From the sequence record MK380014.1: 44,122 bases of DNA; one strand, 5' to 3'. Under the pieces are notes generated by a model. The model saw only the letters and a list, made by a program, of their open reading frames with translations, was not told where the DNA came from and searched no databases. The position numbers and the translations under genes were made by a program. The DNA comes from Klebsiella phage K1-ULIP33. Of this stretch, positions 2,877-43,646 are shown piece by piece; the stretch's first letter is position 1; each line of letters starts with the position of its first letter.

Positions 2877-3785
2877 ATGACTACCGAAAACATTCTCTTG
2901 TCTGTCCGCGAAGCTGCAACCGCTGAAATCAAAGCACATTTGGAGACAATCGGCGCTTCTTACCTCAAAGTCGGCTCCCTTCTGAATGAATTACGCGGCG
3001 ACTTTGAGAACCAGCGCGAATTTCTCGCCTACGTAGAAGAAGAATTCAGCATTAAGAAAGCACAATGCTACAACCTTATGAACGTAGCACGTTGCTTTGA
3101 CGGTGACGAGCGCTTTAAAGGTGTGGCGATGCGCGTCATGCTGTCCCTGATTCCGTTCGCAGATAAGGCCGGGATTATGGATAAGGCCGCAGAACTTGCC
3201 GCCGAGGGCAAATTAGATACGAAGTCCGTTAACGCGCTTACGGGCAAGCCTGAGAATCCCGCCGCTAAACCTATGCATTCACAAGGCGAACCAGAGAAAA
3301 CCGCTGAGAACGCCGCAGAGAGCGCAGAGCAGGCACCGCAGAGCGTACCAGAAGAATCTAATATAGAATGGGGCGCCGATGAAAACACGGATTCGGCACC
3401 GTGGGACGATGAACCAGCACCGCGCGACGACTCACAGAAAGCGCCAGAGCGTAAAGCGGAGCCGCTGGATAACGCTGCAACCGCAGAGAGCGCGGCGATG
3501 GCTGGCATGTTGGAGCAGATTAAAAGTCTTACCAAACAACTCAAAGCTGCAAATGACCGTATCGCAGAGCTAACCAGCACCCGCGAGAACAAGAAGGCCG
3601 CCGCTCCTATGCTTCCACAATTTAAATCTTCCTGCTTCTATGCTCGCTTAGGTTTAAGCGCGGAGGAAGCAAACAAGAAAACAGCAGTTAACAAGGCCAA
3701 ACGTGAGCTTGTTAAGCTGGGTTATGGCGAGGGCCATGAAGCGTGGGTTCTTATTGCCGAGGCAGTAGCTGAATTAACTAAGTGA
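2877..3785 (+). CDS. hypothetical early protein (302 aa) with acidic/proline-rich disordered centre and C-terminal coiled coil
   Basis: Long + strand ORF with RBS. The last early gene before the RNAP, which is the position of host-takeover genes in T7-like phages. No catalytic motif recognised. Confidence 0.6.
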   Translation: MTTENILLSVREAATAEIKAHLETIGASYLKVGSLLNELRGDFENQREFLAYVEEEFSIKKAQCYNLMNVARCFDGDERFKGVAMRVMLSLIPFADKAGIMDKAAELAAEGKLDTKSVNALTGKPENPAAKPMHSQGEPEKTAENAAESAEQAPQSVPEESNIEWGADENTDSAPWDDEPAPRDDSQKAPERKAEPLDNAATAESAAMAGMLEQIKSLTKQLKAANDRIAELTSTRENKKAAAPMLPQFKSSCFYARLGLSAEEANKKTAVNKAKRELVKLGYGEGHEAWVLIAEAVAELTK

Positions 3786-6908: not shown

Positions 6909-8897
6909 ATGGCTATCATCAATAACATTCCTTGCCCGATGTGCCAGAAGAACGGGCATGATAAATCAGGCAACCATCTTATGATCTTTGAGGATGGGGC
7001 AGGTTACTGTAACCGTAGTCACTTCCACGACAACGGACGCCCTTACTACCACAAGCCAGATGGTGGCATCGAAATCACAGAGCTACCTATCAATGGTTCA
7101 ATCAAGTACACTCCTGCACAATTCCGTGACTTGGAGAAAGAAGGGAAGATAGCTGACCCTAAACTACGTGCCATCGCTCTTGGTGGTATGCGAATGAAAG
7201 ACCGTTGGGAGGTAATGAATGATGGAGAGAAGGCAGAGCAAGAAGCCGAGTGGCAACTTGATGTTGAGTGGTTCCTTGAACTTAAAAGGAAGAACCTCGT
7301 ATCACGACACATTAGAGGCGACATTTGTGCGCTGTATGACGTCCGAGTCGGTCATGATGGTGAAGGGAAGGTTAACAGGCATTACTACCCTCGCTTCGAG
7401 AATGGAAAACTTGTAGGTGCGAAGTGCCGGACGCTGCCTAAAGACTTCAAGTTCGGGCACCTTGGTAAGCTGTTCGGCAATCAGGATATGTTCGGCATGA
7501 ACACCATGTCCAACGTGTTGGACAAGGGTCGTCGCAAAGACGTGCTGTTAATTGTCGGCGGCGAGCTTGATGCTATGGCTGCACAGCAGATGCTGATGGA
7601 CGCAGCGACTGGCGATTGGAAGGGCAAGCCTTATCACGTCTGGTCTGTGAACAAGGGTGAGTCTTGCCTTGAAGAGATCGTCCAGAACCGGGAGCACATC
7701 TCGCAGTTCAAGAAAATCATATGGGCCTTTGACGGCGATGAGGTTGGGCGTAAGCAGAACCAGCAAGCGGCCCGCCTGTTCCCTGGCAAGTCCTATATCC
7801 TTGAGTACCCTGCCGGGTGCAAGGATGCGAACAAGGCGCTGATGGCTGGCAAGTCGAAGGAGTTCGTCGATGCATGGTTCAACGCCAAGTCCAGCGAGGA
7901 AGTCTTCGGCAGCCAGATTAAGTCCGTTGCGTCGATGCGTGACGAACTCAAGAGGGCACGACCAGAGGAAGGGCTGTCATGGCCTTGGCCTAAGCTGAAC
8001 AAGGTCACGCTGGGTATTCGTAAGCACCAGCTTATCATCGTCGGCGCAGGCTCCGGTGTAGGTAAGACCGAGTTCCTCCGCGAAGTGGTGAAGCACCTCA
8101 TCGAAGAGCATGGAGAATCTGTTGGCATTATCTCGACGGAAGACCCGACTAAGAAGGTGGCTCGTGCATTCATCGGGAAGTGGATCGACAAGCGCATTGA
8201 GTTGCCGCCGACCAATGACCCGACCGAAGACGGCTATCGTGAGGTGCTTGACTACACAGATGAAGAAGCGGCGGAAGCTATCGACTACGTAGCAGACACA
8301 GGTAAGTTCTTTGTAGCAGATCTCGAAGGTGACTACTCAATGGAGAAGATTGAGCAGACCTGCCTAGAGTTCGAAGCTATGGGGATTCAGAACATCTTTA
8401 TTGATAACTTAACGGGGATTAAATTAGATGAGAGAGCATATGGTGGCAAGGTTGGAGCGCTTGATGAGTGCGTCAAAAGGATTGGAACTATCAAAGACCG
8501 ACACCCTGTTACGATCTTCCTTGTCAGTCACCTTACTCGCCCTTCGGGACAACGTACCCAGCACGAAGAAGGTGGTGAAGTTATCCTTTCTGACTTCCGA
8601 GGCTCAGGAGCTATCGGATTCTGGGCTTCTTACGCCTTGGGGGTTGAGCGTAACACAAGAGCTGAATCGCTTGATGAAAGAACTACCACGTACATCTCAT
8701 GCGTCAAAGACCGTGACCAAGGGATTTTCACGGGGACTAAGGTCATGCTTAAAGGCGACCTTGCAACCGGTAGATTGAAGGAACCTCAAGCACGAACCAA
8801 GAGCTTTGACACAGGTGTACATAAGCAGCAGGAAGTACCTGATGATTTAGGTGACACTATAGAACAAGGTAACTTCGAGGAAGGGCAGGAATTCTAG
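6909..8897 (+). CDS. DNA primase/helicase (T7 gp4-like)
   Basis: N-terminal Cys4 zinc motif CPMCQ..C, a TOPRIM-like region, and a Walker A motif GAGSGVGKTEF in the helicase half. 662 aa. Confidence 0.95.
   Translation: MAIINNIPCPMCQKNGHDKSGNHLMIFEDGAGYCNRSHFHDNGRPYYHKPDGGIEITELPINGSIKYTPAQFRDLEKEGKIADPKLRAIALGGMRMKDRWEVMNDGEKAEQEAEWQLDVEWFLELKRKNLVSRHIRGDICALYDVRVGHDGEGKVNRHYYPRFENGKLVGAKCRTLPKDFKFGHLGKLFGNQDMFGMNTMSNVLDKGRRKDVLLIVGGELDAMAAQQMLMDAATGDWKGKPYHVWSVNKGESCLEEIVQNREHISQFKKIIWAFDGDEVGRKQNQQAARLFPGKSYILEYPAGCKDANKALMAGKSKEFVDAWFNAKSSEEVFGSQIKSVASMRDELKRARPEEGLSWPWPKLNKVTLGIRKHQLIIVGAGSGVGKTEFLREVVKHLIEEHGESVGIISTEDPTKKVARAFIGKWIDKRIELPPTNDPTEDGYREVLDYTDEEAAEAIDYVADTGKFFVADLEGDYSMEKIEQTCLEFEAMGIQNIFIDNLTGIKLDERAYGGKVGALDECVKRIGTIKDRHPVTIFLVSHLTRPSGQRTQHEEGGEVILSDFRGSGAIGFWASYALGVERNTRAESLDERTTTYISCVKDRDQGIFTGTKVMLKGDLATGRLKEPQARTKSFDTGVHKQQEVPDDLGDTIEQGNFEEGQEF
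7508..7523. repeat. palindromic element GTCCAACGTGTTGGAC (copy 4, inside the primase gene)
   Basis: In-frame, encoding M-S-N-V-L-D-K. Confidence 0.8.
8845..8865 (+). promoter_or_regulatory. SP6 promoter (ATTTAGGTGACACTATAGAAC) within the 3' end of the primase gene
   Basis: Consensus match. Drives the downstream genes from 8968. Confidence 0.8.
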
Positions 8898-9902: not shown

Positions 9903-12548
9903 ATGAAAGATATTGATTGGATTAAAGAAGCCCAAGGTCGTATCCTTGTGATGGATGCAGAAGCTAAAGGCCTACTTGATGCCATCCGATACGGACACCG
10001 CGAGGACGTGCATATCAGGATTAAAGAAGCCCAAGGTCGTATCCTTGTGATGGATGCAGAAGCTAAAGGCCTACTTGATGCCATCCGATACGGACACCGC
10101 GAGGACGTGCATATCATTTGCTGCATGGATTTGCTGACCACCGAAGAGTTCCTGTTCTTCGACCCATATGAGATGCGTGACCAGGAAGCGCGGGAGCGGC
10201 TCAAGGAGTGGGAAGGGTTTCAGGACGGCGACCTTGTGGATGGCGTGAACTTCCTCAAACACTGCGAGGCTATCGTATCACAGAACTTTCTAGGGTATGA
10301 CGGCTTGCTCTTTGAGAAGGCATTCCCGTCTGTGTGGCGGGGCTTTAACTACACAGAGAAGCGCGGGAAAGGCCGTCTGCGGGCCGATCTCTGCCCGGTA
10401 AGGGTTATGGATACCCTCGTTATGTCGCGCCTCCTGAACCCGGATAGGCGGCTTCCTCCGCAGGCTTACGCTAAAGGTATGGGTAACGTGGCCCCTCACT
10501 CAATCGAGGCGCACGGCATCCGCATCGGGCGCTATAAGCCGGAGAACGAAGACTGGTCTAAGCTGACAGACCACATGGTTCACCGTGTCCGCGAGGACGT
10601 GGCGATAGGTCGTGACCTGTTCCTTTGGCTACATAACGGCGAGTGGAGGGAGCACAAGGCGCGTGGCGTTAACCCTCGCACTGGCCTTGGCATCGAGACG
10701 GCATTCCACATGGAGTCGATCGTTGCGCTGGAAATGACCCGGCAGGCAGAGCGTGGCTTCCGGCTGGATATCGATAAGGCGCTGGCTCGATGCCAAGAAC
10801 TCGACGAGAAGATCGACGAGACAGTAGCAGCATTCCGCCCGCACATGCCTATGCGTATCAAGTCAAAGCCATTCAAGCCACAAGAGAAGGAGGAACAAAT
10901 CGATGCAGCAAACAGCTACGCGGCGTTACATTCGTTGGGTGCGAGGCTCTCAGAAGACGCCTTCTTACATGTGGAACGTAGGGGTGATAGGAAGACTGTA
11001 TGGGCCGTCACCACTAAGTCTGGGGATTGGTCTGCTACTGTCAAGAAAGATTTTCCTCACATTAGAGGAAATATTAATGACACGCCAAGCCTCAAGCACA
11101 TTGGCCCTTACTCGCCAGTCACCTTTGAAGAGATCCCACTAGGGAACCGTGACACGGTGAAGCAGGTACTCTATGACTTCGGGTGGCGAGGTGTAGAGTT
11201 CAACGATGCAGAGCAGGCATGCATCGACGAGAATGGTGTGCCGCCTAAACCTTGGAGTGGTAAGATCAATGAGAAGTCGATTGCTGTTTGGAAGGAAAGA
11301 GCCGCACGTGAAGGTAAAGCAGTCCCCGATTGGTGCTTGGGTATCGCTGCATGGTACATACTCGTATCCCGTCGCGGTCAGATCCTCAACCGTGGTGACG
11401 TTGAAGCCTTCAATCAGAAGGGAGCGTGGCCCTCGCAGGCTGGTGTACGAAAGTGTCGCGGCCTTATACCTGTAGCATTCAACAAGGAGTTAGGTATCAA
11501 TGCGCAAACGTACTACGAAACCTACGGGTGCTGGCCTACGTCTGATAAGGACGACGGTGAGTGGCGTGTTCCTGCCGTTGCTATCAGTATTGGAACTTCT
11601 ACCTTCCGTATGCGGCATCGTAATGTTGTTAATATCCCCGCTCGTGGCTTATACCCTCTTCGTGATTTATTCATTGCAGGGAAAGGTAAGCTAATCCTTG
11701 GCTGTGATGGTGCAGGTCTGGAATTGCGTGTATTATCGCACTTCATGAACGACCCTGAATACCAAGAGATCGTACTGCACGGTGACATTCACACCCATAA
11801 CCAGCTTAAAGCTGGCCTGCCGAAGCGTGACATGGCGAAGACTTTCATCTACGCCTTCCTGTATGGCTCCGGTATTTCCAACCTAGCGGCAGTTTGTGGC
11901 GTCACTGAGGAGGAGATGAAGGAAGTGGTGGCTCGTTTTGAGATTGAGCTACCCTCACTGGCTCGCCTCCGGGAGAATGTTATCGCTGCCGGAAACAAGT
12001 TCGGCTACCTGCAAGCGCCGGATGGTCATTGGGGCCGCATCCGTATGGCGAATGGTGAACTCAAAGAACACACCATGCTGAACGTGTTGCTCCAAATGAC
12101 AGGCTCCTTGTGTATGAAGTACGCACTGGTGAAAGCCTTTGCAGTCATGCGCAGAGAGGGAGTGGCGCTGGATGATATGGGAAATCCGTGTGGTGTGGCT
12201 AACGTCCACGATGAAATCCAGATGGAGGTGCCAGAAGATGAGGTCTTGTATCTTGACTATACAATACCTTTCACCTTAGAGGGGTTTGAAACTGAGAAGG
12301 CAGCCATTAAAGCCGCATTTGATCCAGAAGAAAAGCGGGTGCATACCGACGTTGATGGCCGTATGTGGTCTGCCGCGAATCTTATCAAGGTAGATGCCGA
12401 GGCAGGTGTTATTCATTGCCAACGTAAATACCATCGTGCTGGTCAAATCATAGCTGAGTCTATGACTTGGGCAGGTAAGTATTTAAACATGCGTTGCCCT
12501 ATGTCCGGGGAATTTAAGATCGGAAGTTCATGGGCTGAAACGCACTAA
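9903..12548 (+). CDS. DNA polymerase, family A (T7 gp5-like), carrying an internal 33-aa tandem duplication
   Basis: The Exo I motif ILVMDAEA is present twice. Pol motifs are present: DTLVMSRLL (A), KTFIYAFLYGSG (B), VHDEIQME (C). 881 aa. Confidence 0.95.
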   Translation: MKDIDWIKEAQGRILVMDAEAKGLLDAIRYGHREDVHIRIKEAQGRILVMDAEAKGLLDAIRYGHREDVHIICCMDLLTTEEFLFFDPYEMRDQEARERLKEWEGFQDGDLVDGVNFLKHCEAIVSQNFLGYDGLLFEKAFPSVWRGFNYTEKRGKGRLRADLCPVRVMDTLVMSRLLNPDRRLPPQAYAKGMGNVAPHSIEAHGIRIGRYKPENEDWSKLTDHMVHRVREDVAIGRDLFLWLHNGEWREHKARGVNPRTGLGIETAFHMESIVALEMTRQAERGFRLDIDKALARCQELDEKIDETVAAFRPHMPMRIKSKPFKPQEKEEQIDAANSYAALHSLGARLSEDAFLHVERRGDRKTVWAVTTKSGDWSATVKKDFPHIRGNINDTPSLKHIGPYSPVTFEEIPLGNRDTVKQVLYDFGWRGVEFNDAEQACIDENGVPPKPWSGKINEKSIAVWKERAAREGKAVPDWCLGIAAWYILVSRRGQILNRGDVEAFNQKGAWPSQAGVRKCRGLIPVAFNKELGINAQTYYETYGCWPTSDKDDGEWRVPAVAISIGTSTFRMRHRNVVNIPARGLYPLRDLFIAGKGKLILGCDGAGLELRVLSHFMNDPEYQEIVLHGDIHTHNQLKAGLPKRDMAKTFIYAFLYGSGISNLAAVCGVTEEEMKEVVARFEIELPSLARLRENVIAAGNKFGYLQAPDGHWGRIRMANGELKEHTMLNVLLQMTGSLCMKYALVKAFAVMRREGVALDDMGNPCGVANVHDEIQMEVPEDEVLYLDYTIPFTLEGFETEKAAIKAAFDPEEKRVHTDVDGRMWSAANLIKVDAEAGVIHCQRKYHRAGQIIAESMTWAGKYLNMRCPMSGEFKIGSSWAETH
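9921..10118. repeat. perfect 99-bp tandem direct duplication (2 units, 97/99 identical) inside the DNA polymerase gene
   Basis: Unit 1 (9921..10019) and unit 2 (10020..10118) differ only in their last 2 nt. Encodes IKEAQGRILVMDAEAKGLLDAIRYGHREDVHI twice. Confidence 0.9.
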
Positions 12549-12563
12549 CATGGGAAAAGGAAA

Positions 12564-13022
12564 ATGCAAGAGTGGGTTCGCATTACAAGCTATCCTAACT
12601 ATGCTGTGTCGAACGAAGGTGAGGTTAAGAATATTAATACAGGGTGTGTATTGCGCCCACTTACACTAACCAAAGGGTACTTAGGTGTTAGGCTATATCA
12701 CGAAGGTAACGGCAAGACGCTTAAGATTCATAGGCTTGTCGCTCTTGCCTTTCTTTCTAACCCTGATAACCTACCTCAGGTAAACCATATAGATGGTGAC
12801 AAGAGTAACAATGATGTTACCAACCTTGAGTGGTGCAGCAATGAATACAATATGCGGCACGCTGCTGACAATGACTTACTTAACAAAGAGACACAGTTTA
12901 AGCAGAAGTATGATCCGTCTGAGTTCCGTAAGTGCAAAGAAGAAGGTATGACCATCTCCGCTATTGCTCGTAAGTTTGGATGTAAGCGGGATACTGTATA
13001 CCGACTTTTAAGACTACGTTGA
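12564..13022 (+). CDS. HNH homing endonuclease (free-standing)
   Basis: Motif HRLVALAFLSNPDNLPQVNHIDGDKSNNDVTNLEW..N is typical of phage HNH/AP2-type endonucleases. Inserted directly after the DNA polymerase gene. Confidence 0.8.
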   Translation: MQEWVRITSYPNYAVSNEGEVKNINTGCVLRPLTLTKGYLGVRLYHEGNGKTLKIHRLVALAFLSNPDNLPQVNHIDGDKSNNDVTNLEWCSNEYNMRHAADNDLLNKETQFKQKYDPSEFRKCKEEGMTISAIARKFGCKRDTVYRLLRLR

Positions 13023-13557: not shown

Positions 13558-13610
13558 AAAGGGCAGCAATAGGTTGCCCTTGATTGTATAGTGTAACAAA
13601 AGGAGGAATA

Positions 13611-14078
13611 ATGGAAATCTGGAAAGTGATATCAGAGTTTCCAGATTATGCCGTAAGTTCTCATGGTAGAGTTAAATCTCTGAGATATAATCGCATAATG
13701 TCTGGAGGCTTAGATGCTGATGGGTACGTCGTTGTAACGCTGAGATCTAACAAGAAACCAAAGACGCAGAAGGTGCATAGGCTGGTTGCAACTGCGTTTA
13801 TATCAAACCCTCTTTGTCTTCCAGAGGTTAACCACAAGAGTGAAATTAAGACGGACAACTTTGTCCAAAACTTGGAGTGGTGTACTAGCCAATACAACAC
13901 TGAGTATTCTCAAGCTAAAACTTATGAAATACTCACACCAAAAGGTGAGCGCATTACCGTAACAAATCTACGTAAGTTTTGCCGTGACAATAATTTATGT
14001 CAAAGTAATATGAACAAGGTATTTAACGGTAAAGCCTCACACCACAAAGGTTATCGTAAATATAATGGAGGTATTTAA
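13611..14078 (+). CDS. HNH homing endonuclease (second copy, free-standing)
   Basis: MEIWKVISEFPDYAVSSHGRVKSL...HRLVATAFISNPLCLPEVNHK..NLEW parallels the first HNH gene (..YPNYAVSNEGEVKNI..HRLVALAFLSNP..VNH). Has its own promoter. AAGGAGGA RBS. The track ORF starts 27 nt earlier, and I prefer the ATG at 13611. Confidence 0.8.
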   Translation: MEIWKVISEFPDYAVSSHGRVKSLRYNRIMSGGLDADGYVVVTLRSNKKPKTQKVHRLVATAFISNPLCLPEVNHKSEIKTDNFVQNLEWCTSQYNTEYSQAKTYEILTPKGERITVTNLRKFCRDNNLCQSNMNKVFNGKASHHKGYRKYNGGI

Positions 14079-36567: not shown

Positions 36568-36859
36568 CCGACATGCGGCGAGTGAAGATGATGTAGGTAT
36601 TCTTCACAACGCCATTACTAAGATGTTCAACAAGAAGGCACAGGCAATCCTCGATGCTATCGAGGACGACCCTGATGCGGCCATCGGTCTTGTCTCAGGC
36701 AAGGATGTAGGTGCGATGTGTAAATGGGTATTGGATAACGGCATCACTGCCACACCTGCCGCGCAGCAAGAAGAGAGCAAGCTGTCCAAGCGACTGGCTG
36801 CACTCAAGGCTGCATCGCAAGGCAAGGTCATTAACTTTACTGACGTTAAGGAGGCTTAA
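36554..36859 (+). CDS. terminase small subunit (gp18-like), start uncertain
   Basis: Gene directly upstream of the large terminase. I prefer the GTG at 36554, 4 nt after GGAGGGAG. The track ORF begins at 36509 on a TTG inside the holin gene. Confidence 0.5.
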   Translation: MAVNNRHAASEDDVGILHNAITKMFNKKAQAILDAIEDDPDAAIGLVSGKDVGAMCKWVLDNGITATPAAQQEESKLSKRLAALKAASQGKVINFTDVKEA

Positions 36860-38025
36860 TGGCAAAGGCAAGGGAGTCACAAGCGGAAGCCCTTGCCCGT
36901 TGGGAGATGCTGCGAGAGTTACAGCAGACGTTCTCCTATACGGTGCAGGGCTTACTGTCGTTCGCTCAGGTGGTAATCAATACGTTAATCACTGGCAATC
37001 CAGACCTGAACCGAGTACAAGCCGATATCCTCAAGTTCCTGTTTGCAGGAAACAAGTATCGGATGGTAGAAGCGCAGCGTGGTCAGGCTAAGACCACTAT
37101 CGCTGCGATCTATGCGGTGTTCCGTATCATTCACGAACCGCACAAACGTATCATGATAGTATCACAGACAGCCAAGCGTGCCGAGGAAATCGCTGGTTGG
37201 GTGATTAAGATCTTCCGTGGGTTGGACTTCCTTGAGTTCATGCTCCCCGATATCTACGCGGGTGACAAGGCTTCAATCAAAGGCTTCGAGATTCACTACA
37301 CCTTACGTGGAAGTGACAAGTCTCCGTCTGTCGCTTGCTACTCTATCGAAGCAGGTATGCAGGGTGCGCGTGCAGATATCATTCTGGCTGACGACGTTGA
37401 GTCGTTGCAGAATAGCCGTACCGCAGCAGGCCGTGCATTGCTGGAGGACTTGACCAAAGAGTTCGAATCCATCAACCAATTTGGCGATATCATCTACCTA
37501 GGGACGCCGCAGAGCGTTAACTCCATCTACAACAACCTCCCGGCGCGTGGCTACCAGATTCGTATCTGGCCCGGTCGCTACCCTACGCTGGAGCAAGAGG
37601 CTTGCTATGGTGACTTCTTGGCACCGATGATCCGCCAAGACATGACTGACAATCCGTGTCTTCGCTCAGGCTATGGCATTGACGGCACTCAGGGCGCACC
37701 AACCTGCCCGGAGATGTACGACGATGAGAAGCTGATTGAGAAGGAGATCTCGCAAGGTACGGCTAAATTCCAGCTACAGTTCATGCTGAACACTCGCCTG
37801 ATGGATGCAGACCGCTACCCGTTACGCCTGAACAACCTGATCATGATGAGCTTTGGCACTGATGTAGTCCCTGAGATGCCGACTTGGAGCAATGACTCGA
37901 TGAATCTTATCGGCGATGCACCGCGCTTCGGCAACAAGCCCACGGACTACCTATACCGCCCTGTGGCCCGCCCGTATGAGTGGCGACCGATTCAGCGTCG
38001 AGTCATGTACATTGACCCCGCTGGT
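36859..38025 (+). CDS. terminase large subunit, exon 1 (ATPase domain)
   Basis: Walker A-like motif ..EAQRGQAKTT.. and ..ILADDVESL... The ORF continues into the intron and stops at 38076. The predicted 5' splice site lies after GCT GGT (38025), within the conserved ..IDPAG.. nuclease-domain motif. Confidence 0.8.
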
Positions 38026-38780
38026 AAACACCTCTGCCAGCGTAAAACCCTCTTAATTCGGTGGAACTCTCACTGAGACAATACCGAGCGAAGCCTGTTG
38101 CAATGGCAGGAACGTGTAGAGACTAACTGTAAGGCCAAGCGGTCTGAAACAGAGGGAGGCGCAAGCCTAAGATGTAGTCCGACCTACTAGGTGACTAGTA
38201 GAAGTTAAAGTAGCGAATTAACGTAACAATTGAAGGAAGTTAAATATGACAGAGCATAAAGTTTATCATATTCGTGTTGTTGGTGAAACCGACGTAATGC
38301 AAGGTTATGTTGGTGTAACCTCCGATGTTAAGAAACGTATGAGAGAGCACAAATGTGCAGGCCGTTTATGTGATGGTCGTGAGTACGTCATCTTATTCAC
38401 TGGTAACAAAGAAGAGTGCTATGCACTGGAAGAAAAGCTACGCCCACATGACAACATTGGTTGGAATAAGGGTAGAGGTGGTTATCGCAAAGCAGGTAAC
38501 ATCGAGAAAGGTGAACGCATAAGTATTGCCACTGAAATCAAGAAATGGCAGCACTTGTCTGTCGATACTGAGTTCAAGAAAGGCATGACACCTTACAACA
38601 AAGGTACTGGCAAAGGTTACATATTCACTTCTCCAGAGGGTGAAGAGTTCCTTGTAACTTGCATTACTGACTTCTGTAAAGAGCACAACCTGACTCCTCA
38701 GAATATGCGCAAGGTGGCTCGCGGACTACGCAAACAGCATAAAGGTTGGCTCGCACGTCACGTTCAAACCGGGAGGTAAG
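38026..38780 (+). mobile_element. group I intron-like intervening sequence carrying a GIY-YIG homing endonuclease ORF
   Basis: The exon end GCUGGU can pair with the internal guide GCCAGC (38036..38041) to form P1, with a U.G at the splice site. R-like GUGUAGAGACUAA (about 38114) and S-like AAGAUGUAGUCC (about 38170) supply the P7 GACUA/UAGUC pairing. The intron ends in G (38780) right after the ORF stop. The exon reading frames are compatible. Confidence 0.7.
38246..38779 (+). CDS. GIY-YIG homing endonuclease (intron-encoded)
   Basis: N-terminus KVYHIRVVGETDVMQGYVGVTSDVKKRMREH fits the GIY-YIG module (xIY..YIG..R..E). 177 aa. RBS GAAGGAAGTTAAATATG. Confidence 0.8.
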   Translation: MTEHKVYHIRVVGETDVMQGYVGVTSDVKKRMREHKCAGRLCDGREYVILFTGNKEECYALEEKLRPHDNIGWNKGRGGYRKAGNIEKGERISIATEIKKWQHLSVDTEFKKGMTPYNKGTGKGYIFTSPEGEEFLVTCITDFCKEHNLTPQNMRKVARGLRKQHKGWLARHVQTGR

Positions 38781-39503
38781 AACGGTGACGAAACTGGCGT
38801 GGCTATCGTCTTCTTGCTGGGGACGTTCATCTACGTATATAAGTGCTTCGGTGTGCCGGGTGGATACTCGGATAGTGCTCTCAGTCGCATTGTGCGCGAG
38901 GCAAAGGCCGCAGAGGTGAAAGAGGTCTTCATAGAGAAGAACTTCGGTCACGGTGCGTTTGAGGCGGTAATTAAGCCATACTTCGAACGAGAGTGGCCTG
39001 CCGAGTTGAAAGAGGATTATGCGCACGGACAGAAGGAAGTGCGTATCATCGAGACGCTGGAGCCTCTATTCTCTGCGCACCGCATCATCTTCAACGCGGA
39101 GATGATTAAGCAGGACATAGACAGCATACAGCACTACCCGCTCGAAATACGGATGAGCTACAGCCTGTTCGGTCAAATCTCGAACATTACTCTGGAGAAA
39201 GGTTGCCTACGGCATGACGACCGCTTAGACGCCCTGTACGGCGCTATACGGCAATTGACTTCTCAGATAGACTATGACGAGGTTAACCGGATAAATCGGC
39301 TCAGAGCGCAGGAGATGCGCGATTATCTGGACATGATGCACGACCCTCGGAGACGCCGGGAGTTCTTTACCGGGCAAGATCATGGGTATCGCCCTCGGAC
39401 GAACACCAGTGATGCCAGAATCCAGTCCGTGTGGGGCAAATCGGTGCGCCCTAAAACTCGTTCTCGAAATACACTTTCTTCAAGAATTTCAAGGACTTGG
39501 TAA
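38781..39503 (+). CDS. terminase large subunit, exon 2 (nuclease domain)
   Basis: The frame is open from 38781 (NGDETGVAIVFLLGT...), upstream of the first ATG at 38799. It continues the terminase nuclease motif begun in exon 1 (IDPAG | NGDETG). Combined product is about 629 aa. Confidence 0.75.
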   Translation, partial: NGDETGVAIVFLLGTFIYVYKCFGVPGGYSDSALSRIVREAKAAEVKEVFIEKNFGHGAFEAVIKPYFEREWPAELKEDYAHGQKEVRIIETLEPLFSAHRIIFNAEMIKQDIDSIQHYPLEIRMSYSLFGQISNITLEKGCLRHDDRLDALYGAIRQLTSQIDYDEVNRINRLRAQEMRDYLDMMHDPRRRREFFTGQDHGYRPRTNTSDARIQSVWGKSVRPKTRSRNTLSSRISRTW

Positions 39504-39686: not shown

Positions 39687-39965
39687 ATGGCTAATGGTTA
39701 TAGTACTCAGCCTTTAACAGGGCGCTATGGGAGGAAGCAGGTACCACCTGTCAGTGAGGCACTGATGCTCCCTATCGTCCAAGAGGCTGCATCTAAAGAC
39801 AAGACCAATGTCGTCAATGATGCAACTAAATCTGGTAAGCAGAAAGGGGCCATGGTGTGCCTTGAAGCAACCGATGGCGCGTTGAAGATTGCTATCGCAG
39901 TTGATGGCAAAGAAGATTCAGAGTGGAAGTCCGTCATAAAGGAAGACCCTATTACCCCAGCTTAA
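39687..39965 (+). CDS. hypothetical protein (92 aa), paralog of the next gene
   Basis: RBS TAGGAGAGATAATG. Shares SGKQKGAMV and L-IA-A motifs with the 39981 product. Confidence 0.6.
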   Translation: MANGYSTQPLTGRYGRKQVPPVSEALMLPIVQEAASKDKTNVVNDATKSGKQKGAMVCLEATDGALKIAIAVDGKEDSEWKSVIKEDPITPA

Positions 39966-39980
39966 AAGGAGGAAGATTAC

Positions 39981-40262
39981 ATGGCTCAATATGGTAAGAG
40001 TGTTACTGGTCAGGCTTTTCGAGTGAAGGCAGTACAAACTGTTGCAACGGCATTACCTTTGCCTGTTGTTACGGAAGCAGACCTTAAAAAGAAAGACCAC
40101 CCTATCAACATCAAACACCTGTCAGGTAAACAGAAAGGTGCCATGGTTGCTCTTGTGAAGGAGGACACAACCTTACATATTGCTGTTGCACGTGGTAGTG
40201 AACCAACAGACTTTTGGGATGTAACTGGTATGGAATCGGCCGCTGTTTCTCCGGAAGTGTGA
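39981..40262 (+). CDS. hypothetical protein (93 aa), paralog of the previous gene
   Basis: RBS AAAGGAGGAAGATTACATG. Shares the ..LSGKQKGAMVALVKEDTTLHIAVA.. core with the 39687 product (..SGKQKGAMVCLEATDGALKIAIAV..). Confidence 0.6.
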   Translation: MAQYGKSVTGQAFRVKAVQTVATALPLPVVTEADLKKKDHPINIKHLSGKQKGAMVALVKEDTTLHIAVARGSEPTDFWDVTGMESAAVSPEV

Positions 40263-41618: not shown

Positions 41619-41699
41619 CACTAGGAGTGGCGTCAGCCACTCTTACGCAACTTTCTTCATAGGCATTCATGGTGGGTGCACATAAACAAAGGAGGTTAC

Positions 41700-43646
41700 A
41701 TGGCTTTAACTAGAGCAACATCGCCTACTCTTAACTTTGACACTGTAAGTCAAGCTGTCTCTTTTGGCACTAAGTTTAAGGTTGGTGATCGCATCTTTAT
41801 CTATGGCGATGAGGGTGTATCTTTTGACTACAGAACAGGATCTTACCTTGTAGACAATGGAACCGTATTTCAAGCAGGTGAGGGTTACTTGGTAAGGAAT
41901 TTTGAAGGGCCAGCCCGGTCTTCTTGGTTCTCTTCGTGGTCTGGTCTGGTGACATATATGTCACTGCCTGGCAGGTCTCTTATCATTGATAATGAAGTGA
42001 AGGCAACTTCTGTGATGTACTTGAAGTCCTTGTCTTCTATCAAATTCACTACAAGTGGTGTAATCATACCAAATGACACACCATCTCAGGTTATCAACAT
42101 ACTTGGGTCAGAACCTACGGCCTTTTTACCAATCGCAGCTAACATGTCAGCAGAGAGTGCACTGGTAACCTTTGCTGACGGCGCAGGTATATCTCCTGGT
42201 GACAATGTGGTGATTAAGTCTGACAGGCCGTGCGACGGCGGACCTAATAGCCACGGCGTCCGTGCCTCGGTCCTTCGCAGGGTGTTAGCTACAACAAGTA
42301 CGGAGGGAGTAACCACGGCACTTCTGGACCAGTCTGTACACTACAACTTCTTGGTATCAGAGAACGCGGTTATCGGTAAGTACAACCCTGTCGAGGATGT
42401 AGAGCTTGTAGATGTGAAGATAAACAAGGTTGCTGACTCTAATGCTCTATTTACCGTAGGCATCTCCATGCAATACTGCAATAACGTGCGTATCAAAGGT
42501 GGTGTGATTCAAGGTAGTAAGCGTGCCGGGTCTGGAGATATCACTGGTCGCTCTGCCATCAAGTTTGCTAACTGTCGCAACTCCTATGTTGACGGCACAC
42601 ACTTCTATGCCATTGGCTGGTACGGTGTGGAGGTGCTTGGGGCATCTGAGGATATCCAGGTAAGGAACATCAAAGCCTGGGATGTTCGACATGCCATTAG
42701 TCTTAACTGGCAGGCAACCACAGATGGCCCTAAGTGGGGTGAACCTATCACCTTCAAGGCCATTGATTGTATTGCACATAAGACTATCCTGTCGGGATTC
42801 GACACCCATGATATCGGCAAGAGAATCCAGTTCATCCGTTGTATCTCTTACGATGCAGGTGATGATGGCTTTCAAGCTCGTGCTCACAACGTTGAGTACA
42901 TCGGATGTAAGGCATACAGACCTAAGCTAGATGGTTTTGCATCAAACACTAATGTTAGCTTCCCGATATACAGGGAATGCATTGCCTACAACGCCCCGCG
43001 TGCTGGGTTCAACGCATCGTATGGTGGTGGTCACATCTATGACTGCGAGGCACACTTCTGTGCAGAGGGTATTAGGACCAGTGGTGGTACGGTGCAAGGC
43101 GGTCGGTACACCAACAACTCCAACGTTGATATCTTCATCACCAAGGATGTTGCAGGTACTCAGCAGACTCCTCTCAACATCTCCGAGGCAAGCCTACGGT
43201 ACGATGGTAATGGTCGTGCTGTGTACTTCCACGGTAAGATGGGTATCGACCCTGCACTTGTCACCATCTCTGATTGTGACATGACAGGTCACGGTCTTGC
43301 CTGGGCATCACTCTCTGGATACACGGTGCAACCTACACCTCCTCGTATGAGCAGGAACACCCTGGACGATGTGAACGTCAGAGGCATCGCAACCCTGGTT
43401 GCTGGCACTGCCACCGTCAATGCTCGTGTGAGAGGTCAGTTTAGCTCTAACGCAAACACCTTTAAGTGGGTGTCTGAGATTAAGCTGACCAGGCTGACCT
43501 ACCCAAGCAATGCAGGACCTGTGTCTGTGACAGCAGTCACTCAGGATGCAAGCGTACCAACACCTAACCCGGACCTGAACTCTTTCACCATTAAGAGTGC
43601 AAACGCAGCTGATGTGTCCCAGGTTATGTGGGAGATATTCCTATAA
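41700..43646 (+). CDS. tailspike (receptor-binding, beta-helix, probable polysaccharide depolymerase)
   Basis: 648 aa. RBS AAAGGAGGTTACATG. The central region has parallel beta-helix-like repeats (..NNVRIKGGVIQGS.., ..NCRNSYVDGTHFYAIGWYGVEV..). It is the last gene before the right DTR, as in SP6/K1-5-type phages. The track ORF starts 24 nt upstream on a weaker ATG. Confidence 0.8.
   Translation: MALTRATSPTLNFDTVSQAVSFGTKFKVGDRIFIYGDEGVSFDYRTGSYLVDNGTVFQAGEGYLVRNFEGPARSSWFSSWSGLVTYMSLPGRSLIIDNEVKATSVMYLKSLSSIKFTTSGVIIPNDTPSQVINILGSEPTAFLPIAANMSAESALVTFADGAGISPGDNVVIKSDRPCDGGPNSHGVRASVLRRVLATTSTEGVTTALLDQSVHYNFLVSENAVIGKYNPVEDVELVDVKINKVADSNALFTVGISMQYCNNVRIKGGVIQGSKRAGSGDITGRSAIKFANCRNSYVDGTHFYAIGWYGVEVLGASEDIQVRNIKAWDVRHAISLNWQATTDGPKWGEPITFKAIDCIAHKTILSGFDTHDIGKRIQFIRCISYDAGDDGFQARAHNVEYIGCKAYRPKLDGFASNTNVSFPIYRECIAYNAPRAGFNASYGGGHIYDCEAHFCAEGIRTSGGTVQGGRYTNNSNVDIFITKDVAGTQQTPLNISEASLRYDGNGRAVYFHGKMGIDPALVTISDCDMTGHGLAWASLSGYTVQPTPPRMSRNTLDDVNVRGIATLVAGTATVNARVRGQFSSNANTFKWVSEIKLTRLTYPSNAGPVSVTAVTQDASVPTPNPDLNSFTIKSANAADVSQVMWEIFL

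Follow-up and report, generated by a model that had tools for sequence, protein, structure and literature searches.

The large terminase gene (TerL) of an SP6-like Klebsiella phage, K1-ULIP33 (MK380014.1), is split in two by a 746-nt group I intron. In our reading of the window, that is, the whole 44,122-nt stretch analysed here, TerL is very probably interrupted by a group I intron that is mobile and self-splicing, has a compact IA-type core devoid of P2 and carries a GIY-YIG homing endonuclease. The first-pass annotation of this DNA had already proposed such an element, and the ribozyme model, the covariation, the intron-less alleles and the fold of the encoded protein all support that proposal. 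The parts of the locus are as follows.

36859-38025, + strand: TerL exon 1, collinear with codons 1-389 of the intron-less IME184 TerL
38026-38771, + strand: group I intron of 746 nt, beginning AAAC and ending with the terminal G38771; RF00028 match
38074-38076, + strand: in-frame UGA that ends the exon-1 read-through in the reading frame of the unspliced RNA
38232-38239, + strand: Shine-Dalgarno-like GAAGGAAG, 6 nt before the endonuclease ATG and conserved in relatives
38246-38779, + strand: endonuclease ORF of 177 aa, crossing the 3' splice site, with its stop TAA (38777-38779) within exon 2
38772-39503, + strand: TerL exon 2, collinear with codons 390-632 of IME184 TerL

The intron limits were set to the base by blastn against the intron-less terL of Klebsiella phage IME184, with exons 96% identical. 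Window positions 36859-38025 and 38772-39503 are contiguous in IME184, and the insertion is missing at exactly the 38025/38772 point in IME184, pKP-M186-2.1, Koku, SP6, UAB_Phi78, ULINTec4 and RoP3a. An alignment of the exons with intron-less terminases, the means suggested in the first-pass annotation for placing the junction, thus delimits an insertion of 38026-38771. The insertion site is identical in 10 other intron-containing phages, and exon 1 ends in GCTGGT in all 11 intron-containing alleles. Exon 1 encodes the ATPase domain together with the nuclease domain's first strand, with MYIDPAG as its C-terminal residues; exon 2 opens GGAGGUAAG at 38772 (GGKNGDETG...) and encodes the remaining RNase H-like nuclease domain and the C-terminus. 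Read on into the insertion, the exon-1 frame from 36859 meets a TGA stop at 38074-38076, as annotated earlier.

The spliced TerL has 632 aa and reads IDPAG/GGKNGDETG, with the same junction residues as the intron-less IME184 TerL. The predicted junction in the ligated-exon mRNA is GCUGGU/GGAGGU, in the context of GACCCCGCUGGU followed directly by GGAGGUAAGAAC, and the TerL peptide spanning it would be YIDPAGGGKNGDETG. The insertion point falls within the conserved DPxG-xGK motif, in which the RNase H-like nuclease domain has its first catalytic Asp. Once the exons are joined, this domain of the T7/SP6-type terminase (gp19) is contiguous: the spliced TerL matches positions 1-108 of PF22530 unbroken (residues 385-494, 114.9 bits), aligns to the T7 gp19 structures 8dgc (E 1.7e-33) and 4bij, and matches the T7 gp19 motif DPSGRGK-DETG. 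An intein was considered and rejected, since the insertion carries a ribozyme and has stops in the TerL frame. The related GenBank records examined give two 'terminase' CDSs, with neither the intron nor a joined CDS annotated; the annotation implied by our analysis is one TerL CDS, join(36859..38025,38772..39503), together with an intron and a homing endonuclease.

The ribozyme core occupies the first 176 nt of the intron (38026-38201). Its elements are listed below; the core elements from P3 to P9 rest on the Rfam alignment, the custom covariance model R1 and alignment A3.

38030-38042, + strand: internal guide region, with the P10 strand at 38030-38035 and the P1 strand at 38036-38042
38048-53/38151-56, + strand: P3
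38058-63/38082-87, + strand: P4
38068-71/38075-78, + strand: P5
38088-89/38114-15, + strand: P6
38094-99/38105-10, + strand: P6a
38119,38121-25/38175-80, + strand: P7, GACUA 38121-38125 with UAGUC 38175-38179
38132-36/38141-45, + strand: P7.1/7.2-type hairpin
38158-60/38165-67, + strand: P8, GCAA loop
38168-38174, + strand: J8/7, AAGAUGUAGUC, its last position being G38174
38174, + strand: G at the last J8/7 position, a near-invariant A elsewhere
38184-90/38195-201, + strand: P9, GUGA loop

Rfam RF00028 matches 38016-38201 over its full length (model positions 1-253) with 49.3 bits, at E 2.5e-11 in a 1-kb search and 1.1e-9 in the whole window. This score lies 0.7 bit under the gathering score of 50, though far beyond chance; a scan of the whole window at the gathering threshold returned no match, and the group I match appeared only with an E-value threshold. 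No second intron was found in the whole window by Rfam at E <= 0.1. RF00028 gives 56.3-64.3 bits for ten homologous copies, inserted at this site or at one next to it. Two pairings read earlier from the letters are recovered. P1, first described as GCUGGU 38020-38025 with GCCAGC 38036-38041, extends to 7 bp, with exon-1 CGCUGGU (38019-38025) pairing with GCCAGCG (38036-38042) and the U38025.G38036 pair at the 5' splice site; the P7 pairing supplied by the R and S elements, GACUA with UAGUC, is the one given above. A 6-bp P10 is formed by guide ACCUCU (38030-38035) and exon-2 GGAGGU (38772-38777), and the terminal G38771 directly precedes exon 2 as delimited by the intron-less alleles. G38174 adjoins the guanosine-binding P7.

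Model R1 found 126 full-length relatives. In the relatives' alignment 95.4% of cells pair, with compensatory double changes in 48 of 52 pairs, as against none of 500 shuffles as high and 34-43% in slid controls; the sequences were aligned to the structure of the model, and the pairing percentages are consequently inflated for all helices but P7. P7 pairs in 98.8% of cells though it was left out of the covariance model. P1 pairs in 92% of cells, its seven pairs all covarying across 114 relatives, and in the metagenomic same-site copies L141 and L142 it is formed by GCGGGU and GCUCGC. The MFE fold recovers P1, P3-P6a, P8 and P9 (z = -2.4). As to the subgroup, IA2 would call for extra P7.1/P7.2 helices in the P7-P3' interval and for the periphery typical of T4-type introns; a single covarying hairpin (38132-38145) lies in that interval, and P2 is absent; related Bacillus TMP introns have been classed as IA2 (PMC2504315). 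A search for P9.0/P9.x, matching the post-P9 segment and J7/9 to the final 70 nt of the intron, gave no convincing pairing: candidates drawn by hand lacked conservation among the window, phD2B and VEN, and the RNAduplex output was uninformative. The 3' end lies about 570 nt beyond P9, P10 being the only convincing pairing found that returns it to the core.

The endonuclease is encoded in the 3' two-thirds of the intron. About residues 1-75, at its N-terminus, form a GIY-YIG catalytic domain, recognised by sequence model, motif residues and fold, and about residues 109-173 form a C-terminal I-HmuI/NUMOD-like DNA-binding domain. The single-sequence Pfam match to GIY-YIG falls under the cut-off. 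The PHROGs label 'HNH endonuclease' was rejected for the catalytic domain, as it stems from the shared DNA-binding module. The ORF is under purifying selection. Its extent, 177 aa at 38246-38779, stands as first annotated; its placement wholly between the exons does not, as its last 8 nt belong to exon 2, whose codons form the stop out of frame. The invariant Gly-Arg C-terminus of the enzyme is encoded by the terminal G and exon-2 GGAGG, and the ORF runs on past the 3' splice site in 11 of 11 phage copies and in three divergent metagenomic lineages (stop 8-20 nt into exon 2).

With an endonuclease ORF that always extends beyond the 3' splice site, splicing may be coupled to the synthesis of the enzyme. 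The excised intron would be a non-stop message, with properly terminated endonuclease coming only from unspliced or 3'-exon-attached RNA, and a ribosome completing the ORF would cover P10 and the 3' splice site. A strict mechanistic coupling, each transcript yielding either TerL or endonuclease, is a tentative proposal that we consider possible but on balance doubtful; if true, it would place GGAGG under a triple constraint (TerL Gly-Gly codons, P10 and endonuclease C-terminus). No phage promoter was found in or just before the intron, the window-consensus scan giving sites only at 8847, 13024, 15147, 23352 and 39504, and a sigma-70 scan gave nothing within the intron. The sequence TAGGTGAC in the P9 hairpin resembles SP6-type promoters; it was rejected as an endonuclease promoter, the consensus scan having no site there.

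The distribution of the element speaks for its mobility. Klebsiella phage cp4 and E. coli phage K1E share 98.8% identity in the intron and 73.8% in the exons, and the window copy differs from K1E in the same manner (intron 94.6%, exons 74.1% identical). Each of three clades contains both intron-containing and intron-less phages. Within -30..+42 of the insertion, four of ten informative sites in K1E are of the Klebsiella intron-containing type; of the 45 such sites in the adjoining 110-120 nt to each side, none is. Judged from these sequence comparisons, the patchy presence, the discordance between intron and exon identity and the short co-conversion tract indicate recent homing. The anatomy of the element, its boundaries, its RNA structure with covariation, the protein folds and this population signature of lateral transfer are what the analysis shows.

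The first-pass annotation had placed the 3' boundary later. It took the intron to be 38026-38780, with G38780, the base next to the endonuclease stop, as its end, and the spliced product to be IDPAG/NGDETG, of roughly 629 aa. Position 38780 is indeed a G, the resulting frame is open and the 629-aa product still matches PF22530 (110.3 bits). That junction, however, would delete 9 nt, GGNGGTAAG (Gly-Gly-Lys), that are present in the intron-less alleles of all seven phages; P10 ACCUCU pairs with GGAGGU at 38772-38777 and not with AACGGU; and the 38771/38772 alternative scores higher (114.9 bits) and fits T7 gp19 DPSGRGK-DETG. We regard the later boundary as practically untenable: the comparison with IME184 puts the true site at G38771/G38772, 9 nt upstream, so that the product has 632 aa and the ORF overlaps the splice site.

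The locus might also be a split gene that does without splicing, an endonuclease cassette with a ribozyme inactivated possibly by G38174, the ATPase and nuclease polypeptides of TerL acting in trans. Genes that free-standing endonuclease genes have divided offer a parallel, their polypeptides assembling in trans, and the two 'terminase large subunit' CDSs annotated in relatives' GenBank records, the score of the window copy under the Rfam threshold and the rare base at a near-invariant core position would all agree with it. Against this stands the position of the break, which cuts into the RNase H-like domain at its first strand and motif, downstream of DPAG with the catalytic Asp; moreover, the earliest start codon in the exon-2 frame is GTG 38799, downstream of the GGKNGDETG motif, which would be lost. 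The ribozyme has also been kept, with compensatory changes, across lineages 66-76% identical, and the synonymous codons that form P1 and P10 are fixed in intron-containing alleles only: these all keep GCT-GGT/GGA-GGT, whereas intron-less alleles vary at those wobble positions. Such a split gene therefore seems very unlikely to us. Rather improbable, too, is an intron that works in an attenuated or host-dependent way, G38174 lowering splicing so that TerL and packaging are throttled or a cellular RNA chaperone is needed, as is the alternative that faulty assembly or sequencing put the G in place of a consensus A. The substitution itself is rare: position 38174 is A in 10 of 10 closest relatives, the G being unique among 11 close copies, and among the distinct sequences of alignment A3 with a base there it is A in 102 of 105 and G in two. 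The window copy scores about 11-15 bits below its closest relatives in Rfam, and some Bastillevirinae introns splice in vivo and not in vitro (PMC11878797). G38174 could accordingly slow catalysis, or could be a sequencing error; yet the remaining core and all helices are intact, and the phage behind this genome, which requires TerL, was presumably viable.

We favour, then, a mobile self-splicing intron, for which the following model can be proposed. The phage RNA polymerase would transcribe terL within a long late mRNA, in which the core (38026-38201) would fold and P1 would present U38025.G38036, allowing exogenous guanosine to attack after U38025. P10 (ACCUCU with GGAGGU) and the terminal G38771 would then align the 3' splice site, and ligation of GCUGGU to GGAGGU would yield the 632-aa TerL. 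The endonuclease, made from its own ribosome-binding site, would by analogy with I-TevI cut the intron-less terL of a co-infecting SP6-like phage near the insertion site, and repair off the intron-containing genome would copy the intron together with some tens of bases of the adjoining exons. Splicing of the window copy, homing, the activity of the endonuclease and its cleavage site, a competitive benefit and marker exclusion are all parts that we infer. Packaging would depend on splicing, since unspliced RNA gives only a 405-aa product (389 TerL residues and 16 intron-encoded) and an exon 2 that lacks a suitable start; virion production would thus hang on an RNA-catalysed step.

The element is clearly being passed among SP6-like phages of Klebsiella, Salmonella and Escherichia, and many of these phages are candidates for therapy. 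In a mixed infection or a phage cocktail the intron could spread, flanking markers could be converted or intron-less partners excluded, as has been demonstrated for another phage intron endonuclease (PMC11620839). Ribosomes translating exon 1 cover a further 51 nt of intron, which takes them across P1-P5; those on the endonuclease ORF traverse the 3' splice site; either could disturb folding. The overlap of ORF and splice site and the rare core substitution offer testable handles on translation versus splicing in phage mRNAs. The current understanding of group I introns is unchanged by these findings.

The intron is not new, contrary to what the first-pass annotation had implied: it is known at the same terL site in K1E (gp40A/40.5/40B) and phD2B. 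The K1E intron is catalogued among phage group I introns (PMC2504315), the phD2B and K1E terL insertion has been suggested to be a group I intron (PMC4246154), and the terminase is recognised as an intron target in phages (PMC3984707). The same element is present in K1E, vB_EcoP_C/D/R, P433.1, Salmonella PST_H2/SE29, Klebsiella Kpp-61/VR702/cp4 and Lelliottia phD2B. These K1E-type copies share the site (IDPAG/GGKNGDE), the length of 746 nt (744 nt in phD2B) and the 177-aa endonuclease, whose stop lies 8 nt inside exon 2, and their introns are 94-99% identical (76% in phD2B). The window differs from K1E in belonging to a Klebsiella K1-type SP6-like phage, with exons 74% identical, and in its G38174.

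Homologous ribozymes, with R1 scores of 166-187 bits, lie in the same TerL motif in the Slopekvirinae phages P284 (Klebsiella) and PA28 (Pseudomonas), which also carry a homologous GIY-YIG/NUMOD-like endonuclease. There the insertion is 6 nt further downstream (DPAGxG/GDE), the guides differ, PA28 having its own matching P10 (AUCACU with GGUGAU), and the ORF stops short of the intron's 3' end. The T4 nrdD (sunY) and td introns, with I-TevII and I-TevI, are IA2 phage introns. The window intron differs from them in host gene and phage family, in an ORF that crosses the 3' splice site, in the absence of any intron-internal promoter that we could find, and in the I-HmuI/NUMOD-like DNA-binding domain of its endonuclease, unlike the zinc-finger/HTH type of I-TevI. 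Self-splicing TerL introns have been demonstrated experimentally in Bastillevirinae (PMC11878797), which are unrelated myoviruses whose introns carry other endonuclease families. A related ribozyme splits the DNA polymerase gene of IME184, whose terL is intron-less. Among T7-like phages, PhiI, W31 and cyanophage Pf-WMP3 (I-PfoP3I) have group I introns in their DNA polymerase genes (PMC3428280). Like these, the window combines a group I intron and homing endonuclease with an essential gene in an Autographiviridae-type phage with phage RNA polymerase transcription; it differs in that theirs interrupt DNA polymerase and carry HNH enzymes, whereas the intron described here interrupts TerL and carries a GIY-YIG enzyme.

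The large terminase gene (terL) is interrupted by a real intron-like element, essentially as the first-pass annotation had interpreted it, with the 3' boundary corrected to 38771/38772. The TerL frame opens at 36859 and ends at TGA 38074-38076, a 177-aa ORF lies at 38246-38779, and the nuclease-domain frame runs on to 39503, in agreement with the earlier ORF reading. In megablast searches, the full 2645-nt interval is covered in 15 phage records, and a larger set gives only a two-block match in which the middle is missing. We took the intron-less terL of Klebsiella phage IME184, with exons 96% identical to those of the window, as the reference for the boundaries. Window positions 36859-38025 align to its codons 1-389 and 38772-39503 to its codons 390-632, leaving no gap in IME184, and therefore the insertion comprises 38026-38771, i.e., 746 nt.

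Features of the interrupted terL gene
36859-38025, terL exon 1
38026-38771, group I intron
38232-38239, Shine-Dalgarno sequence of the endonuclease, GAAGGAAG
38246-38779, endonuclease ORF
38772-39503, terL exon 2

Joining 38025 to 38772 yields ...MYIDPAG/GGKNGDETG..., a protein of 632 aa that is collinear with IME184 TerL. The comparison with intron-less terminases, proposed in the first pass, thus upholds the interruption and shifts its 3' limit: a 38025/38781 junction would lose a Gly-Gly-Lys kept in every intron-less allele examined, and the alleles, together with the P10 pairing, place the intron end at 38771 instead of at G38780, right after the ORF stop. The spliced protein matches positions 1-108 of PF22530 (T7 terminase RNase H-like domain) in one stretch with 114.9 bits (exon 2 alone, 103.5; the earlier junction, 110.3), and its alignment with T7 gp19 structures continues through the junction (IDPSGRGK--DETG versus IDPAGGGKNGDETG).

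Both splice sites are predicted to be specified by pairing, through P1 and P10. In P1, the exon end GCUGGU pairs with the guide GCCAGC, with U38025.G38036 at the splice site, as had been assigned; the helix covaries at the same site in three divergent metagenomic copies (GCGGGU and GCUCGC in contigs L141 and L142). The P1 loop ACCUCU (38030-38035) is complementary to the start of exon 2, GGAGGU (38772-38777), forming a 6-bp P10 that sits exactly at the junction set by the intron-less alleles. The intron is preceded by GCT-GGT and followed by GGA-GGT in all 11 alleles that contain it; at those codons, intron-less alleles show GCT, GCA or GCG and GGC, GGA or GGT.

The intervening RNA is a group I ribozyme. 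It matches the entire RF00028 model (positions 1-253) at 38016-38201 with 49.3 bits (E 2.5e-11), and a default Rfam scan of the window returns no match because this score is 0.7 bit under the gathering score. Read together with the covariation, this full-length match supports the assignment to group I. The homologous copies of cp4 (64.3 bits), K1E and P433.1 (63.6 each), PST_H2 (62.1), VR702 (60.7), Kpp-61 (60.5), P284 (59.9), PA28 (59.8), phD2B (58.1) and Vibrio phage VEN (56.3) all pass the threshold.

Helices of the ribozyme core (P2 is absent)
P1, 38019-25 / 38036-42
P3, 38048-53 / 38151-56
P4, 38058-63 / 38082-87
P5, 38068-71 / 38075-78
P6, 38088-89 / 38114-15
P6a, 38094-99 / 38105-10
P7, 38119, 38121-25 / 38175-80
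One P7.1/7.2-type hairpin, 38132-36 / 38141-45
P8, 38158-60 / 38165-67
P9, 38184-90 / 38195-201

A covariance model built from eight copies was searched against 100 sources, mostly IMG/VR contigs retrieved by the conserved motif GACAATACCGAGCSAAGC, and gave 126 full-length matches, 114 of them distinct. In their alignment, which was fitted to the model so that the percentages favour the modelled helices, standard pairs occupy 95.4% of pair cells, and both partners have changed in 48 of the 52 pairs. In 500 column shuffles the observed values were never reached, and sliding the 3' partners by 1-3 columns lowers pairing to 34-43%. P7 did not form part of the model, and yet 98.8% of its cells are paired and four of its pairs covary; its original assignment was right. 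An unconstrained minimum free energy fold of 38016-38205 recovers P1, P3, P4, P5, P6a, the extra hairpin, P8 and P9 (z = -2.4).

The same motif occurs in at least 120 IMG/VR contigs, several with 2-4 copies (e.g., L038 with three matches and L074 with four, also L039, L043 and L057), so that this ribozyme family is common in uncultured phages and frequently present in several copies. L142 (ENA ERZ27260030 k141_12438) has two copies in its terL region, at 650-862, followed by a 246-aa ORF, and at 2253-2459, at the window's site; its TerL is in at least three pieces.

One core position of the window copy is rare. Base 38174, the last of J8/7 and adjoining the P7 3' strand, is G in the window (AAGAUGUAGUC) and A in all ten closest relatives and in the Rfam consensus; among 105 distinct relatives with a base there, 102 have A and two have G, namely the window and one weak match. 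This position probably corresponds to A306 of the Tetrahymena intron, next to the guanosine-binding site. G38174 coincides with the sub-threshold Rfam score, and it could be a tolerated variant, a variant attenuating splicing, or a sequencing error.

Ribosomes translating the TerL frame of unspliced RNA would read 51 nt of intron, across P1-P5, before stopping at UGA 38074-38076, giving a computed truncated product of 405 aa, and the exon-2 frame offers no possible start before GTG 38799, which lies past the GGKNGDETG motif. These features of the reading frames argue that a terminase made of two pieces acting in trans is unlikely and that splicing should be needed for packaging. The single-subunit RNA polymerases of phages move faster than ribosomes, which would allow the ribozyme to fold ahead of translation. 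In GenBank records of relatives (L002, L003, L009 and L011-L014), TerL is always annotated as two separate CDSs, with neither an intron feature nor a joined CDS; the second CDS begins either at a GTG past the junction or at an intron-internal start codon. Homologues of the window's ORFs 39687-39965 and 39981-40262 are named 'acetyl-CoA acetyltransferase' in several RefSeq records, which seems a doubtful label for proteins of 92 aa.

The window comprises the whole genome of an SP6-like podophage of the Molineuxvirinae type, whose terL region is 96.4% identical to that of Klebsiella phage Kpp-61 (megablast). A consensus-site scan places SP6-type promoters (TTAGGKGACACTATAGAAG...) at 8847, 13024, 15147, 23352 and 39504. 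As it finds none between 23352 and the terL end, terL, the intron and the endonuclease gene appear to share one long late transcript; with no phage promoter in or immediately upstream of the intron (nearest upstream site, 23352), the endonuclease is probably translated from the terL precursor via its own Shine-Dalgarno sequence. The tailspike gene (41676-43646) encodes K1 capsule-specific polysaccharide lyase domains (PF24145, PF24149, PF24146), fitting a Klebsiella K1-type host, as for the closest relative, Kpp-61. Two free-standing HNH homing-endonuclease-like genes, at 12564-13022 (NUMOD4, HNH_3 and HTH), which immediately follows the DNA polymerase gene (9903-12548), and at 13584-14078 (NUMOD4, HNH and I-HmuI NUMOD-like domain), bring the homing-endonuclease-type genes to three.

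The intron ORF is a predicted two-domain GIY-YIG homing endonuclease. Alone, it matches the Pfam GIY-YIG family weakly (20.9 bits; cut-off, 22.6). Thirteen homologues were found; in an 11-member alignment, Y7, Y21, G23, R31, H35, E62 and N74 are invariant, and PF01541 is matched by 9/11 members, in line with the GIY-YIG assignment made at first. PF22083 (I-HmuI NUMOD-like domain) is matched by 8/11, and the family profile hits the C-terminal DNA-binding part of I-HmuI (1u3e; E 1e-4). In the AlphaFold model (mean pLDDT 79), a disordered linker connects a beta-beta-alpha-beta-alpha N-domain to a C-domain; Foldseek retrieves the I-HmuI-like part only. The PHROG label 'HNH endonuclease' is due to the shared DNA-binding module, not to the catalytic domain.

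All 11 phage copies keep the ORF intact (dN/dS 0.10-0.16), and in all of them it reads through the 3' splice site. With 38771 as the final base of the intron, the ORF has its last 8 nt in exon 2 (ACC G/GG AGG TAA), and therefore the excised intron contains no stop codon for the ORF it carries. The terminal G and GGAGG supply the codons of the conserved C-terminal Gly-Arg, and the TerL codons GGT-AAG, read out of frame, provide the stop. In metagenomic lineages the stop lies 8, 17 or 20 nt into exon 2, because exon codon usage differs. ORFs overlapping intron core sequences are known (PMC3984707); a limited literature search found no description of one reading through the 3' splice site. It is plausible that this overlap would couple splicing to endonuclease translation.

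Intron-containing and intron-less phages occur side by side in each of three clades (megablast), and intron identity is decoupled from exon identity in three phage pairs.

Distribution of the intron and identity of phage pairs
Klebsiella clade: intron in window, Kpp-61, VR702, cp4; intron-less IME184, pKP-M186-2.1, K44PH129C1, Koku
Salmonella clade: intron in PST_H2, SE29; intron-less SP6, UAB_Phi78, BP12B, Kenya phages
Escherichia clade: intron in K1E, vB_EcoP_C/D/R, P433.1, PhiNW-E1; intron-less ULINTec4, vB_EcoP_K
cp4 vs K1E: intron 98.8%, exons 73.8%
Window vs K1E: intron 94.6%, exons 74.1%
Window vs PST_H2: intron 94.8%, exons 85.0%

From -30 to +42 of the insertion site, K1E has the Klebsiella intron-containing variant at 4/10 informative sites, compared with 0/45 in -150..-31 and +43..+150 and 3/124 further out, a pattern that would be expected from short co-conversion tracts in homing. 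The comparison for PST_H2 tells less, since terL is mosaic throughout in this phage. In Kpp-61, about 10 substitutions some 100-130 nt upstream of the intron are common to PST_H2 and SE29 and absent in other Klebsiella phages, which suggests mosaic recombination upstream of the insertion site.

The element is not novel as a class, nor even as an element. In K1E it is annotated as 40A (TerL), 40.5 (putative homing endonuclease) and 40B (TerL), and a table published in 2008, of phage group I introns resembling the IA2 introns of Bacillus prophages, lists the K1E large terminase (PMC2504315). The phD2B genome announcement proposed an intron with a homing endonuclease, K1E being the sole other case among its relatives (PMC4246154). 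Terminases are among typical phage intron targets (PMC3984707), and Bastillevirinae TerL introns splice in vitro and in vivo (PMC11878797); the window's intron therefore belongs to a known kind. What is new is the precise position of the junction, the consistent extension of the endonuclease ORF across the 3' splice site, the signal of lateral transfer and co-conversion, the rare core substitution G38174, and a wider distribution, including Vibrio phage VEN (same site) and the Slopekvirinae phages P284 and PA28.

In P284 (1974-~2770) and PA28 (1992-2786), terL carries a homologous ribozyme and a GIY-YIG/NUMOD-like endonuclease, but the insertion lies 6 nt downstream of the window's site (DPAGxG/GDE), with another guide sequence, and the ORF ends inside the intron rather than in exon 2. 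In IME184 (locus L007, 632-3849), terL is uninterrupted, but an 'endonuclease VII' ORF splits the DNA polymerase gene; this insertion gives a weak group I match (29 bits, 2946-3107) and its 5' part resembles the window's intron. Different relatives have related introns in different essential genes. Introns of T7-like DNA polymerase genes code for HNH enzymes (PMC3428280), whereas the TerL intron of the window encodes a GIY-YIG enzyme.
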